DNA of 64,000 nt from an uncultured Chlamydiales bacterium (GTDB lineage Bacteria; Chlamydiota; Chlamydiia; Chlamydiales; JAAKFR01). This document shows positions 30,001-33,000 of the stretch, piece by piece. Each line of letters opens with the position of its first letter. Within the stretch, counting starts at the first letter, position 1. Where the stretch lies: NCBI GenBank assembly GCA_963699155.1, contig OY969414.1, positions 709,327-773,326 on the forward strand. Reading direction: 5' to 3'. The position numbers are program-made.

Positions 30001-33000
30001 TAGAATAATTTTAAAGCGACGGAAGAAATTTACGCAAATTTGTGTCCAAAGAAATGGTGGCGATACAGTCAGCGTTAGATGATCTTCTGCCGAGTGACCA
30101 CAAAGTACGTTTTGTTTGGGATTTTGTATGACAACTCATATCTTGGCATTGTTTTAGGTAACATAAAGTCAGCAAAGGCAAAGCAGGTCATCAAGCGACA
30201 GATCCAAAGGTTAGGATAATGAAGATGGCTTGTGGAGGATTAATCCTGCCTATAACGTGCAATTTGCCACAGAGATCACAAGTCGAGTGATTAAAGGAGT
30301 GGCTCGGTAATTGGCGCCGTTGGGAGTGGCAGCGGCCCATTGAGGGCCGCGAGCGACCTTCGGCGCCCCACCCGCGCCTGAGACCGAGGCTGCGCCAGCA
30401 GGCGAGGGTCTCAGCGACGGGCCTAATAGATCGATTTTTTCACAGCCTCGAAGCGCCCGTTCGAAGGCAAGAGTGGCGAGGCATTAGTCACGTAAGATGT
30501 AACCTGAGAGGCTTTCACTGTCACAGGGTTTGACCAGCACCCGAAAGTGCGGGACCGCACGGAGTGCCCGTTCGAAGGCAAGAGTGGCGAGGCATTAGTC
30601 ACGTAAGATGTAACCTGAGAGGCTTTCACTGCCACAGGGTTTGACCAGCACCCGAAAGTGCGGGACCGCACGGAGTGCCCGTTCGAAGGCAAGAGTGGCG
30701 AGGCATTAGTCACGTAAGATGTAACCTGAGAGGCTTTCACTGCCACAGGGTTTGACCAGCACCCGAAAGTGCGGGACCGCACGGAGTGCCCGTTCGAAGG
30801 CAAGAGTGGCGAGGCATTAGTCACGTAAGATGTAACCTGAGAGGCTTTCACTGCCACAGGGTTTGACCAGCACCCGAAAGTGCGGGACCGCACGGAGTGC
30901 CCGTTCGAAGGCAAGAGTGGCGAGGCATTAGTCACGTAAGATGTAACCTGAGAGGCTTTCACTGCCACAGGGTTTGACCAGCACCCGAAAGTGCGGGACC
31001 GCACGGAGTGCCCGTTCGAAGGCAAGAGTGGCGAGGCATTAGTCACGTAAGATGTAACCTGAGAGGCTTTCACTGTCACAGGGTTTGACCAGCACCCGAA
31101 AGTGCGGGACCGCACGGAGTGCCCGTTCGAAGGCAAGAGTGGCGAGGCATTAGTCACGTAAGATGTAACCTGAGAGGCTTTCACTGTCACAGGGTTTGAC
31201 CAGCACCCGAAAGTGCGGGACCGCACGGAGTGCCCGTTCGAAGGCAAGAGTGGCGAGGCATTAGTCACGTAAGATGTAACCTGAGAGGCTTTCACTGTCA
31301 CAGGGTTTGACCAGCACCCGAAAGTGCGGGACCGCACGGAGTGCCCGTTCGAAGGCAAGAGTGGCGAGGCATTAGTCACGTAAGATGTAACCTGAGAGGC
31401 TTTCACTGCCACAGGGTTTGACCAGCACCCGAAAGTGCGGGACCGCGCCGAAGGCGCAGCCGAGTGCTGAAGCCGCGGGTAATTGATAAATTAATTCGAG
31501 AAACGTCCAAACTTCAGGTAGGCCCTACGGACCTTGGGATATCCTACATATCATGCCGCTTGCGATCTTTCATATCCTTGTTTCTTTCTTTTCTTTCCCT
31601 CGCTGAGACTCTCGGCTGCTGGAGCAGCCTCGGTCTCAGGCGCGGGTGGGGGGCGCCGAAGGTCGCTCGCGGCCCTCTTCGGGCCGCTGCCACTCCCAAC
31701 GGCGCCAATTGCCGAGCGGCTATCCTCAACACCCAATTCAGGAATCTTCTCTTCCATGTGCAAAGCCTCGTCTGAGAAGCCCCAGAAGGACTCAGATAGA
31801 AATAAGATGGTCAGCGTTAGATGATCTTCTGCCGAGTGACCACAAAGTACGTTTTGTTTGGGATTTTGTAGGACAAATTAAAGTCAGCTCCAAGGCTAGG
31901 ATAATAAGTAGTGGCTCGGCAATTGGCGCCGTTGGGAGTGGCAGCGGCCCGAAGAGGGCCGCGAGCGACCTTCGGCGCCCCCACCCGCGCCTGTGACCGA
32001 GGTGCAGCCGAGTGACGAAGCCGGGGCAATTAATTAATTTGGCAATGTCCAAACTCAGGTTTATAGCCTGACTAGATAGGAGACGAGGGAGATGGCGAAG
32101 GCGGCGAAGACAGGGGTGCGGCGCATGCGCATCTCGTAGAGTTTATGGAGAATGGTGAGGATCGAGAGGATGATGAGGCCGGGGCAGAGAATCTGGAGGA
32201 TTGGCGAGAGCATCTGTGCGATGCCCATGAAGCCGAGATTGGCGATCGCCATGGAGAGGCCGAGAGAGAGGAGGATGGCAACATGGATGCTTCCCTTACT
32301 CCTCATGAAATCTTTGTGGATGTACTCGGCGGAGATCACAGCGATGGGGATGGCGGTGGTCAGACAGGCCATCGACACAGCGATGCAGGAGAAGAGGGCA
32401 CCGGTTGGGCCGAGAAGGTAGCGAGAAACGACGGCAAGCCGCTCCTCGGGTTCATGAGCTTCAAGAACGGGAGTATAGAAGGAGGCGAGATAGGTCAGAC
32501 CGACATACATTGCGGCCAGAAGGGCGCCTGCGATGACACAGGCTTTGACCATTTTCTTAAAGACCTGGCGCTTCGATTCGGCTGTGGGTTCTCCTTTCTG
32601 ATCAGAGATAAAATAGGAGAGTACAAGGGGGGCAAAGATGAAGGAAGCAATCAGATCGAGCGTGTTATAGCCCACATTTAAGCCATAGAAGAAAGAGTCT
32701 TTGTTGCTGATGTCAACGGTTACTTGAGCGGGTGGATTGATAAAACCTGTTATCAAAATCGATCCTAAAGCAATCAAGAGAAGGGGACAGAGATAAAGAC
32801 CCATAATCTCTATAATTTTATGCTTTTTGACGGTGAAGAGATAGACGAGGCCGCACGCCAAGAAGCTAAAGAGGGCCAATGAGATAAATTCGGGCATGTA
32901 AGGTTTGAGAGTGGCATGAGCCAAAGTGATCAAGCGAGGAATCGATCCAAAGGGTCCCAAGATTGCCTGAATGAGAAAAACAAGCACAATTCCCGATTTT

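Follow-up and report, generated by a model that had tools for sequence, protein, structure and literature searches.

A GC-rich non-coding 111-bp unit at three intergenic loci of an uncultured Chlamydiales bacterium

A GC-rich, non-coding unit of 111 bp is present at three loci in 64,000 nucleotides of contiguous DNA from an uncultured Chlamydiales bacterium (hereafter the window), forming two tandem arrays and one inverted single copy, all intergenic and within 64 kb of one another. We read it, with about an even chance of being right, as an interspersed tandem repeat that is restricted to one lineage and resembles MIRU, BOX and BIME repeats in kind.

Results

Anatomy and copy number of the unit

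Tandem Repeats Finder reported the first array as 8.9 copies of period 111 (99% matches, score 1956, 30455-31446) and the second as 4.1 copies of period 112 (97%, 46991-47454), while nhmmer placed one inverted single copy at 61693-61818, in agreement with the inverted-repeat pairs. The initial annotation had described the same layout, namely an exact 111-bp period (the unit starts of array 1 fall exactly at 30455 + 111k), a 4 x 112-bp array at the second locus and an inverted copy at the third. With their edges included, the three loci are:

30455-31457, + strand: array 1, nine head-to-tail 111-bp units, the ninth ending in a variant junction hairpin (31445-31457)
46991-47454, + strand: array 2, four 112-bp units between a leading and a trailing hairpin
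61691-61820, - strand: locus 3, one complete unit with its core block at 61774-61803 and its 3' hairpin at 61691-61702

A unit profile search of the 64-kb window found exactly 14 copies (9 + 4 + 1) and no diverged extras, and a 19-nt core occurs 14 times at <=1 mismatch, against 0.02 occurrences expected by chance. The G+C content of the units is 57-61%, compared with 48% for the window.

The copies of array 1 had been said to differ at one site, which is correct for units 1 to 8, where unit position 67 is the sole variable site (reading T,C,C,C,C,T,T,T from the first unit to the eighth), but not for unit 9, which carries four more differences within its last 7 nt. The T-CCCC-TTT-C pattern at position 67 across all nine units suggests block duplications. 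Units are 97-100% uniform inside the arrays, and over 101 body columns the loci are 76-81% identical to one another, the latter close to the earlier estimate of roughly three-quarters and the two together fitting the recent amplification or concerted evolution proposed with it. The most diverged units are those at the array edges, and the body of locus 2 has a 1-nt deletion.

Conservation along the unit is uneven, as previously noted, with a near-invariant 30-nt core (a run of 30 columns with <=2 variable ones, permutation p = 0.011). Block 1, CCGTTCG(A/C)AGGCA(A/G)GAGTGGCGAGGCATTA, is kept throughout, the sole exception being GGCGTTA in the first unit of locus 2. The second block follows its reported pattern in loci 1 and 3, but locus 2 has GTG in place of GGT. 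The columns that vary between loci are distributed 2/16/12 across the three phases (p = 0.0006), a pattern present in every branch.

Genomic surroundings

Array 1 lies in a nest of IS3 copies and GC-rich inverted repeats:

28553-30297, + strand: IS3-family insertion sequence (orfA 28650-29033, orfB 29030-30082), immediately upstream of array 1
30298-30420, + strand: GC-rich (72%) element, left arm of a ~125-nt inverted repeat around array 1
28385-28509 (- strand) and 31906-32060 (+ strand): relatives of the GC-rich element
31597-31722, - strand: right arm of the inverted repeat around array 1, and also the left arm of a palindrome (97% complementary) that encloses the mini-IS
31723-31905, + strand: mini-IS, an internally deleted, non-autonomous copy of the IS3-family element, with the deletion between 14-bp direct repeats (GTCAGCGTTAGATG)

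The other two loci are found behind the tRNA genes of the window:

46811-46885, + strand: tRNA-Phe(GAA), with no terminator-like site before array 2
61497-61584, + strand: tRNA-Ser(GGA), followed by ACCGGC-gtat-GCCGGT and a T run, as read from the sequence

Array 2 shares the strand of tRNA-Phe and lies ~106 nt beyond the 3' end of that gene; 76 nt separate the array from the first in-frame ATG (47531) of the GNAT gene that follows. Locus 3 is ~107 nt 3' of tRNA-Ser, past the terminator of that gene and in opposite orientation. A unit is thus located ~110 nt downstream of 2/2 tRNA genes in the window, an arrangement whose chance probability we put roughly at 0.004. Between loci, the flanks have no sequence in common.

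In the two nearest relatives, the tRNA-Phe flank holds either an AbiE toxin-antitoxin pair or a phage-type integrase, and it contains neither the unit nor an analogous tandem repeat; this flank is a variable insertion spot. For the adjacent M23 peptidase, identity to its closest counterparts reaches only 58% and 51%. Contigs assembled from short reads of the same organism break at or near repeats and a tRNA gene.

Searches for relatives and known classes

At the gathering score, Rfam recovered only two tRNAs from the whole window, and at E <= 10 nothing fell on the units of any locus. The one marginal match, to neisseria_FSE, scored 21 bits where the gathering score is 50, and it covers an array edge only. 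Phage and plasmid collections were likewise without a match to the unit. The initial annotation, which had recognised no known RNA or repeat family in the unit, stands after the cmscan check that it had proposed. A scan of GTDB representatives and metagenomes for the exact core TCGNAGGCANGAGTGGCGAGGC returned chance 22-mers with no similarity beyond the pattern, and a viral scan gave no match to the core; these scans demand an exact core, which diverged family members would escape. Nothing useful was found in the literature on the organism or on similar chlamydial repeats.

Several specific identities were considered and rejected. ARAGORN and Rfam were negative for a tRNA-like identity, and Rfam for an SRP-like reading suggested by an ACCAGG motif. 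A hammerhead-like CUGANGA/GAAA combination occurs in locus 1 only, within the variable region, and candidate sigma-54 or ParB half-sites are not conserved. A CRISPR array is incompatible with a 111-bp period that is identical from unit to unit over its entire length, leaving no unique spacers. For an integron attC array we looked for R''/R' core sites (RYYYAAC...GTTRRRY), cassettes between the sites and a nearby intI; RYYYAAC is present in locus 3 only, the units abut without a cassette and there is no integrase among the scanned window ORFs. A MITE was set aside because the terminal inverted repeats are just CCCCG/CGGGG (4-5 bp), with no target-site duplication or flanking direct repeat. BOX-type modular repeats were rejected on the unrelated flanks of the three loci, which lack common end modules, REP/BIME on the short hairpin stems (4-5 bp) and a GTAG confined to locus 2, and MIRUs sensu stricto on the lack of small ORFs coupled to flanking genes. 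No RAYT or other candidate mobilising enzyme was detected among the scanned window ORFs. What the unit does display is the arrangement of a MIRU-like minisatellite, with head-to-tail units of 111/112 bp and one family at three intergenic loci of the window.

An interspersed repeat as the preferred reading

One element consists of a ~100-nt body carrying the near-invariant 30-nt block and the second conserved block, bounded by CCCCG...CGGGGCC and punctuated at each end by a short G+C hairpin with a G...A loop. Copies may have settled where insertions were tolerated, 3' of two tRNA genes and in the IS-associated nest, and may then have been amplified locally at two loci by unequal recombination or replication slippage between units. 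Unit-to-unit exchange would keep the arrays homogeneous while the loci drift. The occurrence of the unit in three unrelated intergenic contexts, both in arrays and as a single copy, supports this reading, as does the greater divergence of the edge units, which unequal exchange predicts. Further support comes from the high G+C content of the units, the junction hairpins that keep their pairing, the lack of coding capacity and of a match to a known RNA family, the position behind tRNA genes, one of them with a variable insertion spot in its flank, the IS3 surroundings of array 1 and the MIRU and BOX precedents.

Array 2 would probably be transcribed passively, as a 3' trailer of tRNA-Phe and/or as the leader of a GNAT-efflux operon, in which case its junction hairpins could act as barriers at RNA 3' ends or be sites of processing. 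The conserved core would most simply be the recognition site of a protein that moves or maintains the element.

Against the interspersed-repeat reading, neither a target-site duplication nor an empty/filled site pair was found, so that we infer mobility rather than observe it. The amplification mode and any effect on neighbouring transcripts are inferences as well, whereas the analysis did show the anatomy, the copy pattern, the absence of coding capacity and the absence of any known relative from the collections searched. The terminal inverted repeats of only 4-5 bp and the lack of a conserved REP-type GTAG tag also speak against it. The 3-nt periodicity of the between-locus substitutions is left without explanation, and the near-invariance of the 30-nt core argues for a sequence-specific constraint beyond that of a selfish repeat alone.

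Junction hairpins and RNA structure

Every unit junction carries a 4-5-bp hairpin with a G...A loop, in which the stem sequences differ and the pairing is kept:

30557-30567 and every 111 bp to 31334-31344, + strand: locus 1 internal junction hairpin GCAC-gga-GTGC (eight junctions)
31445-31457, + strand: locus 1 last-unit hairpin GCGCC-gaa-GGCGC
46991-47002, + strand: locus 2 leading hairpin GCGC-ggta-GCGC, before the first unit
47103-47115 and +112 steps, + strand: locus 2 junction hairpin GGCGC-gta-GCGCC
61691-61702, - strand: locus 3 hairpin CGCC-gtta-GGCG

The four substitutions of unit 9 are those needed to turn one perfect junction hairpin into another, and the joint chance of three independent hairpin stems is ~0.01, calculated as the product of per-segment shuffle fractions. 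A different pairing had been proposed earlier, between complementary unit ends with compensated changes between loci, and this did not hold. The CCCG...CGGG ends show no variation in any copy and hence carry no covariation information, and the extra C-G pair of loci 2 and 3 corresponds to a G opposite an A in locus 1, where both sides have changed and the pair is lost.

Single-sequence RNA folds of the units had no extra stability relative to shuffles (z from +0.76 to -1.9), and DNA folds of the junctions did not differ from shuffles either. RNAalifold gave a positive, that is penalising, covariation term on both strands; the helices that all copies can form consist of invariant bases throughout. 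No sigma-70-type promoter was detected in or beside any unit. Thus, of the grounds on which a structured RNA or a protein-bound site had been preferred to a neutral satellite, uneven conservation was upheld and complementary ends were not, and neither folding nor covariation lent support. The unit may still be a structured RNA or a protein-bound site, and the same observations are accounted for by an interspersed repeat of a selfish or structural nature.

Tandem genes for a small structured or regulatory RNA are, in our judgement, an unlikely explanation. Each unit would specify a ~105-nt RNA, with the junction hairpins as the sites at which a multimeric precursor is cut. The minus strand of the unit might be the functional one; its invariant core is pyrimidine-rich (UGCCUCGCCACUCUUGCCUUC) and could pair with purine-rich ribosome-binding regions. 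An invariant core beside a variable unit middle and a boundary hairpin that covaries are consistent with such genes, and array 2 is probably transcribed, since no terminator separates it from tRNA-Phe. At locus 3, the complement of the core is on the + strand of the window and is followed by a 20-bp terminator-like palindrome, and an imperfect 9-bp stem gains pairs from both of the changes specific to locus 3 that fall within or beside the core (body columns 14 and 31). These points are opposed by the fold and covariation results described above and by the invariance of the commonly formable helices, which leave weak structural support from three diverged variants only. They are also opposed by the lack of a promoter on either strand at any locus, the inconsistent orientation to neighbouring genes and the hairpin loops, which are GNA/GNNA and not GNRA. 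Rfam gave no match, and neither of the two nearest relatives yielded a homologue from its syntenic tRNA-Phe flank.

A bolder proposal, which we think decidedly unlikely, is that the unit represents a new functional element restricted to Chlamydiota. It could be a structured RNA, released by cleavage at the junction hairpins from multimeric precursors that derive from tRNA 3' trailers, or a hairpin-bearing single-stranded DNA element that targets tRNA 3' flanks. Under both versions the 3-nt periodicity would reflect a real triplet-register constraint, imposed for example by translation of a micro-ORF array or by a triplet-reading protein.

Possible binding sites for a protein

That the arrays are double-stranded DNA binding sites for a sequence-specific protein seems improbable to us. 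Candidates would be a recombinase, a nucleoid protein, or gyrase or IHF by analogy with BIMEs. The arrays would then serve as landmarks of DNA structure or topology or, placed behind heavily transcribed tRNA genes, as insulators. The two conserved blocks separated by a variable spacer would suit such sites, as would the occurrence of the unit in either orientation relative to its neighbours and directly behind both tRNA genes of the window, and BIMEs are known to bind IHF, Pol I and gyrase (PMC3184786). However, the conserved blocks have neither dyad symmetry nor internal iteration, no candidate binding protein is encoded nearby, and nine identical sites beside an IS resemble amplification more than design.

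Coding capacity

One long ORF runs through array 1 and was judged spurious:

30423-31412, - strand: 329-aa ORF (37-aa repeat)

It is open across the array only because 111 = 3 x 37, its third codon positions sit on the least variable sites, and its frame has a pN/pS of 3.5-6.3. A protein homologue of this repeat ORF, which the initial annotation had named as a possible refutation, was sought and not found among the best 8000 candidates of 5.8 billion clusters; an 899-aa concatenation of the six frames of the three loci also had no match at E <= 10 among the best 8000 candidates from the same number of clusters. A Pfam 'CX module' hit comprised no single stretch that passes alone. Real genes score 0.31 ± 0.14 for codon usage, and none of the six frames of the unit exceeds 0.07. 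The loci share no conserved ORF, no ORF of theirs overlaps the neighbouring genes, and a tandem-repeat protein gene finds no support here, as both a conserved open frame with purifying selection and a homologue are lacking. The unit is non-coding, as had been claimed, and the 112-bp period at locus 2, the non-genic codon usage and the lack of a homologue in six frames all agree on this.

A coding relic, or a sequence still translated as a 37-codon protein repeat or a micro-ORF, would make the 3-nt periodicity a matter of codon-level selection; one example is the minus-strand micro-ORF MPRHSCLRTG..., whose start lies within the core in every copy. We hold this to be very unlikely, in spite of the strong phase bias of the variable columns in every branch, a pN/pS of 0.38-0.67 in + frame 2, where several Leu, Ser, Pro and Arg changes are synonymous, and two variable core sites that are synonymous in the frame of the minus-strand micro-ORF. 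All frames that fit the periodicity carry stop codons in all three loci, locus 2 combines its 112-bp period with a frameshifting deletion, the micro-ORF tails are unrelated between loci, and a direct reading revealed no convincing Shine-Dalgarno sequence. The codon usage is non-genic in every frame, no protein homologue was found for any frame among the best 8000 candidates, and the window contains no paralogue.

Scars of integrative elements, left as attachment or arm-site regions beside tRNA genes and amplified later, seem to us very unlikely, since the position of 2/3 loci 3' of tRNA genes and the phage-type integrase of one relative exactly where array 2 lies are outweighed by a unit unlike tRNA 3' ends, the absence from the window of a duplicated tRNA 3' fragment, the lack of an integrase gene among the scanned window ORFs, a third locus without a tRNA gene and the opposite orientation of the two tRNA-linked copies.

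Discussion

For the present we regard the unit as a neat curiosity that falls short of a new mechanism. Even as nothing more than an interspersed minisatellite, it offers a ready set of VNTR markers for typing a poorly known, probably symbiotic chlamydial lineage, marks recombination-prone spots and adds to the cases in which repeats have proliferated in intracellular bacteria. Should the core and the triplet periodicity prove functional, it would represent a new class of RNA or DNA element tied to tRNA loci in Chlamydiota, in which, to our knowledge, very few non-coding RNAs are known.

Among known tandem systems, the LhrC1-4 genes of Listeria encode small RNAs of ~110 nt each. They resemble the unit in length, head-to-tail order and a C/U-rich candidate seed, but each has a promoter and a terminator and they differ from one another, whereas the copies described here are identical, with neither signal detectable.

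IS3-family elements such as IS1397 insert into REP/BIME sequences, an arrangement resembling the IS between GC-rich inverted arms beside array 1. Like the unit, the REP/BIME sequences of enterobacteria and pseudomonads are G+C-rich extragenic hairpins that occur singly or in regularly spaced clusters, often 3' of genes. IHF and gyrase bind to them, and they have a stabilising effect on mRNA (PMC3184786). REPs are described as 20-40-bp palindromes with a GTAG or CGTC tag (PMC3733652). REPs alternate in orientation within BIMEs, whereas the unit is a direct repeat in which the palindrome accounts for only ~12 of 111 nt; furthermore, the tag is not conserved in the unit and no RAYT gene is present among the scanned window ORFs.

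The BOX elements of Streptococcus pneumoniae (boxA-boxB(n)-boxC) contain tandem boxB modules, are transcribed as UTR extensions of adjacent operons and carry chance ORFs on both strands that have no homologues outside related streptococci (PMC3049150). Both BOX and the unit are interspersed intergenic repeats with a tandemly amplified module whose long arrays give rise to chance ORFs. A boxB module is ~45 bp long and lies between conserved boxA and boxC end modules, in contrast to a unit of 111 bp at three loci without common flanking modules.

MIRUs (mycobacterial interspersed repetitive units), the basis of MIRU-VNTR typing, belong to another phylum and have no sequence relationship to the unit. 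They measure 40-100 bp, occupy 40-50 intergenic loci, where their head-to-tail copies vary in number, contain G+C-rich internal inverted repeats, are transcribed with their neighbours and are missing from homologous sites of related species (PMC3184786). Although MIRUs lie inside operons with small ORFs coupled to flanking genes, and the unit has no conserved ORF and two of its loci behind tRNA genes, the two have in common head-to-tail units of tens to ~100 bp, several intergenic loci, absence from homologous sites of related species, a G+C-rich composition and inverted repeats.

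A GC-rich tandem repeat family at three loci

The 111-bp period starting at 30455 and the three loci described in the initial annotation were confirmed by Tandem Repeats Finder and by a profile search:

30455-31446, array 1, period 111 bp, 8.9 copies, 99% matches (Tandem Repeats Finder)
46991-47454, array 2, 112-bp variant, 4.1 copies (Tandem Repeats Finder)
61693-61818, locus 3, one complete unit, inverted

The profile made from the unit variants retrieved exactly 14 copies in the 64-kb window, with no 15th or diverged copy below E = 0.28, and the 19-nt core search string occurred 14 times against 0.02 expected. 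In the body-column alignment (30566-30676, 47108-47219 and 61691-61820) the loci were 76-81% identical over 101 columns, in line with the earlier estimate of roughly three-quarters. The 30 variable columns left a conserved block, the best 30-column window containing two of them (permutation p = 0.011). Because period, profile, core count and permutation agree, the array, the three-locus family and its conserved core are real. The units have 57-61% G+C, the window 48%. Array 1 copies were said to differ at a single site, which holds for units 1-8 (register from 30455; the base at unit position 67 runs T,C,C,C,C,T,T,T) but not for unit 9, with C at position 67 and four changes within its last 7 nt. 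Likewise, the second retained block as first written fits loci 1 and 3 but mismatches locus 2 at two positions.

Exact-core scans of genome, metagenome and viral collections returned only chance 22-mers, and blastn of the unit against plasmids and phages gave no match. The source genome forms one 2.40-Mb contig, and short-read contigs from this organism end near the repeats or in tRNA-Phe.

Junction hairpins and evidence for an RNA

The main structural argument had been that the unit ends are complementary with a compensated difference between loci. In fact CCCG/CGGG does not vary, and only loci 2 and 3 have the fifth pair, C-G; locus 1 has G facing A there. The argument fails, and the unit is therefore less striking than first thought. 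The sole secondary-structure feature at a constant place across all variants is a short boundary hairpin:

internal array 1 junctions, GCAC-gga-GTGC
array 1 end, GCGCC-gaa-GGCGC
array 2, GGCGC-gta-GCGCC
array 2 start, GCGC-ggta-GCGC
locus 3, CGCC-gtta-GGCG

The stems vary in sequence while pairing is always perfect, and the four distinguishing substitutions of unit 9 convert one perfect hairpin into another. Such a hairpin occurred in 11-42% of shuffled boundary segments, giving a joint chance of roughly 0.01 for three independent stems (product of per-segment shuffle fractions), which is moderate support for a covarying boundary hairpin. Every loop has G first and A last; DNA mini-loops of the GNA and GNNA type are notably stable. 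The complete element is thus hairpin - CCCCG - ~100-nt body - CGGGGCC - hairpin, adjacent units within arrays having their junction hairpins in common.

That the units form a tandem small-RNA gene family is possible but unlikely. RNAalifold covariation terms were positive, hence penalising, on both strands. Array 2 is probably transcribed, judging from its surroundings: no terminator-like site was found between tRNA-Phe and the array, which stops 76 nt short of the first ATG that is in frame with a GNAT gene heading an efflux operon. Locus 3, in contrast, lies past the tRNA-Ser terminator in opposite orientation. Rfam reported only two tRNAs over the whole window at gathering score and no match on the units at E ≤ 10, in line with the earlier remark that the unit was not recognised as a known RNA or repeat family. 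Minimum-free-energy folds were not better than those of dinucleotide shuffles, an exhaustive search for helices formable by all variants found only helices of invariant bases, and no sigma-70-type promoter was detected in or beside any unit. Taken together, these predictions provide weak evidence for any RNA. The preference for a structured RNA or protein-bound site over satellite DNA consequently retains its conserved core and loses its compensated ends, with folds and covariation weak; that the arrays are series of duplex-DNA sites bound by a protein appears rather improbable.

Coding potential and substitution periodicity

The minus strand of array 1 carries a 329-aa ORF, which is open because 111 is divisible by 3; at locus 2 the period is 112 bp and the body has lost 1 nt. 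In the ORF frame variation is lowest at third codon positions, and the codon differences number 2 synonymous vs 45 non-synonymous (pN/pS 3.5-6.3). Log-odds of codon usage, with 17 genes in the window as training set, were ≤0.07 in all six frames of the unit; real genes scored 0.31 ± 0.14 when read in frame and -0.69 when read out of frame. Among 5.8 billion protein clusters neither the ORF nor a six-frame concatenation of the three loci (E ≤ 10) found a match, and the clean homologue of the 37-aa repeat named beforehand as contrary evidence was not found there. A Pfam 'CX module' score on the repeat ORF is a repetition artefact, since no individual stretch passes. The ORF was rejected as a present-day gene by frame, codon usage and homology; codon usage, pN/pS, frame loss in locus 2 and protein search all concur with the non-coding assignment.

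The 30 variable columns are distributed 2/16/12 by 3-nt phase (permutation p = 0.0006), in runs spaced exactly 3 apart, with the same depleted phase in every branch. The frame matching this codon-like pattern, + frame 2 (pN/pS 0.38-0.67), is interrupted by stops at each of the three loci and has non-genic codon usage, and none of the frames is open or gene-like. We see two readings only: the trace of a coding past, or some constraint in triplet register. A minus-strand micro-ORF whose product begins MPRHSCLRTG starts inside the core in every copy, with tails unrelated between loci. A coding relic or micro-ORF, for which the periodicity would speak and against which the stops and codon usage stand, seems very improbable.

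tRNA linkage and gene context

A unit lies ~110 nt downstream of both tRNA genes in the window, an arrangement with a chance of about 0.004 (uniform placement, ~55 intergenic intervals). In the two nearest fetched relatives the neighbouring M23 peptidase is 58% and 51% identical and tRNA-Phe is conserved, but the unit is absent from the tRNA-Phe flank; the site matching array 2 (L007 4071-4608 and L009 13-795, the records of that flank) is occupied by an AbiEi/AbiEii toxin-antitoxin pair or by an integrase of phage type. The tRNA-Phe 3' flank is a variable insertion hotspot in the lineage. That the units are scars of tRNA-targeting integrative elements, as the integrase there might suggest, is very improbable.

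Other features of the window include two tail-specific proteases (Tsp, S41):

3597-5513, minus strand, Tsp, passing the CT441-type NCBIfam model
43623-45557, plus strand, Tsp paralogue with the same Pfam S41 and Tsp N-terminal domains, adjoining the M23 peptidase

SecDF has the long fused form, and the order cysJ-like / rpsJ / fusA / rpsG / rpsL / ... / tsp agrees with that of Chlamydia. With the CT441-type protease, these features make a chlamydial origin of the window very probable. Tandem paralogous genes without Pfam or NCBIfam family (60484-60960 and 60992-61465; 158 and 157 aa; 76% nucleotide identity over 136 nt) lie directly upstream of tRNA-Ser. A near-perfect 65-nt palindrome (61872-61936; 32-nt arms, 97% complementary, 1 nt apart) separates the single unit from an ankyrin-repeat gene, with a weak T run after it on the plus strand and only spurious miRNA hairpins as Rfam matches; a second palindrome (34352-34434; 39-nt arms, 90% complementary, 5 nt apart) occupies the interval from the cysJ-like gene to rpsJ. 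Further tandem repeats are intergenic or at gene ends (18251-18342, 33 bp x 2.8; 45547-45613, 34 bp x 2) or within a DUF11 surface-protein gene (25057-25192, 54 bp x 2.5).

An IS3 nest around array 1

28385-30420 and 31597-32060, IS-associated GC-rich nest with highly structured inverted flanking elements
28639-28652 and 30068-30081, 14-bp direct repeats GTCAGCGTTAGATG in the IS; mini-IS counterpart at 31810-31823
31457-31520, 32003-32060 and 28385-28440 (minus strand), 'tail' motif behind array 1 and two GC-rich elements

An IS3-family element and an internally deleted copy of 183 bp (mini-IS) each lie between inverted 70-125-nt elements of 72% G+C, the arms around the mini-IS being 97% complementary. 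The mini-IS arose through deletion between the 14-bp direct repeats, with loss of both transposase ORFs. Either the terminal repeats of the IS are unusually long, or its target is the loop of a palindromic repeat; the latter would resemble IS1397, which inserts into REPs. The GC-rich elements matched nothing in Rfam or the plasmid collection, and the flanks of array 2 and locus 3 bear no likeness to them.

On either side of array 1 stands a GC-rich element, and the two are 91% complementary. Together with a 35-nt leader the array lies between two diverged copies (15/24 identical) of the initial 24 nt of the tail motif, GCAGCCGAGTG..GAAGCCG.GGGYAATTRAT...GTCCAAACT(T)CAGG, and thus has the appearance of an insertion or duplication within one GC-rich element.

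Comparison with known repeat families

We give about an even chance to the unit being an interspersed tandem repeat confined to this lineage and of the MIRU, BOX or BIME kind (PMC3184786; PMC3049150). Such units would have dispersed into tolerant intergenic sites, amplified locally through unequal exchange or slippage and been homogenised inside arrays, with passive transcription where neighbouring genes read through; hairpins and core would be likely handles for a protein acting on the unit. Core conservation, tRNA linkage and triplet periodicity leave a modest chance of something new. The unit lacks the tagged palindrome that defines REP/BIME, the terminal inverted repeats and target duplication of a MITE and the end modules of BOX, and the defining features of attC site arrays and CRISPR arrays were likewise absent; we therefore place it under the general kind rather than in a named family, as a clean, previously undescribed sequence family of a known general kind.
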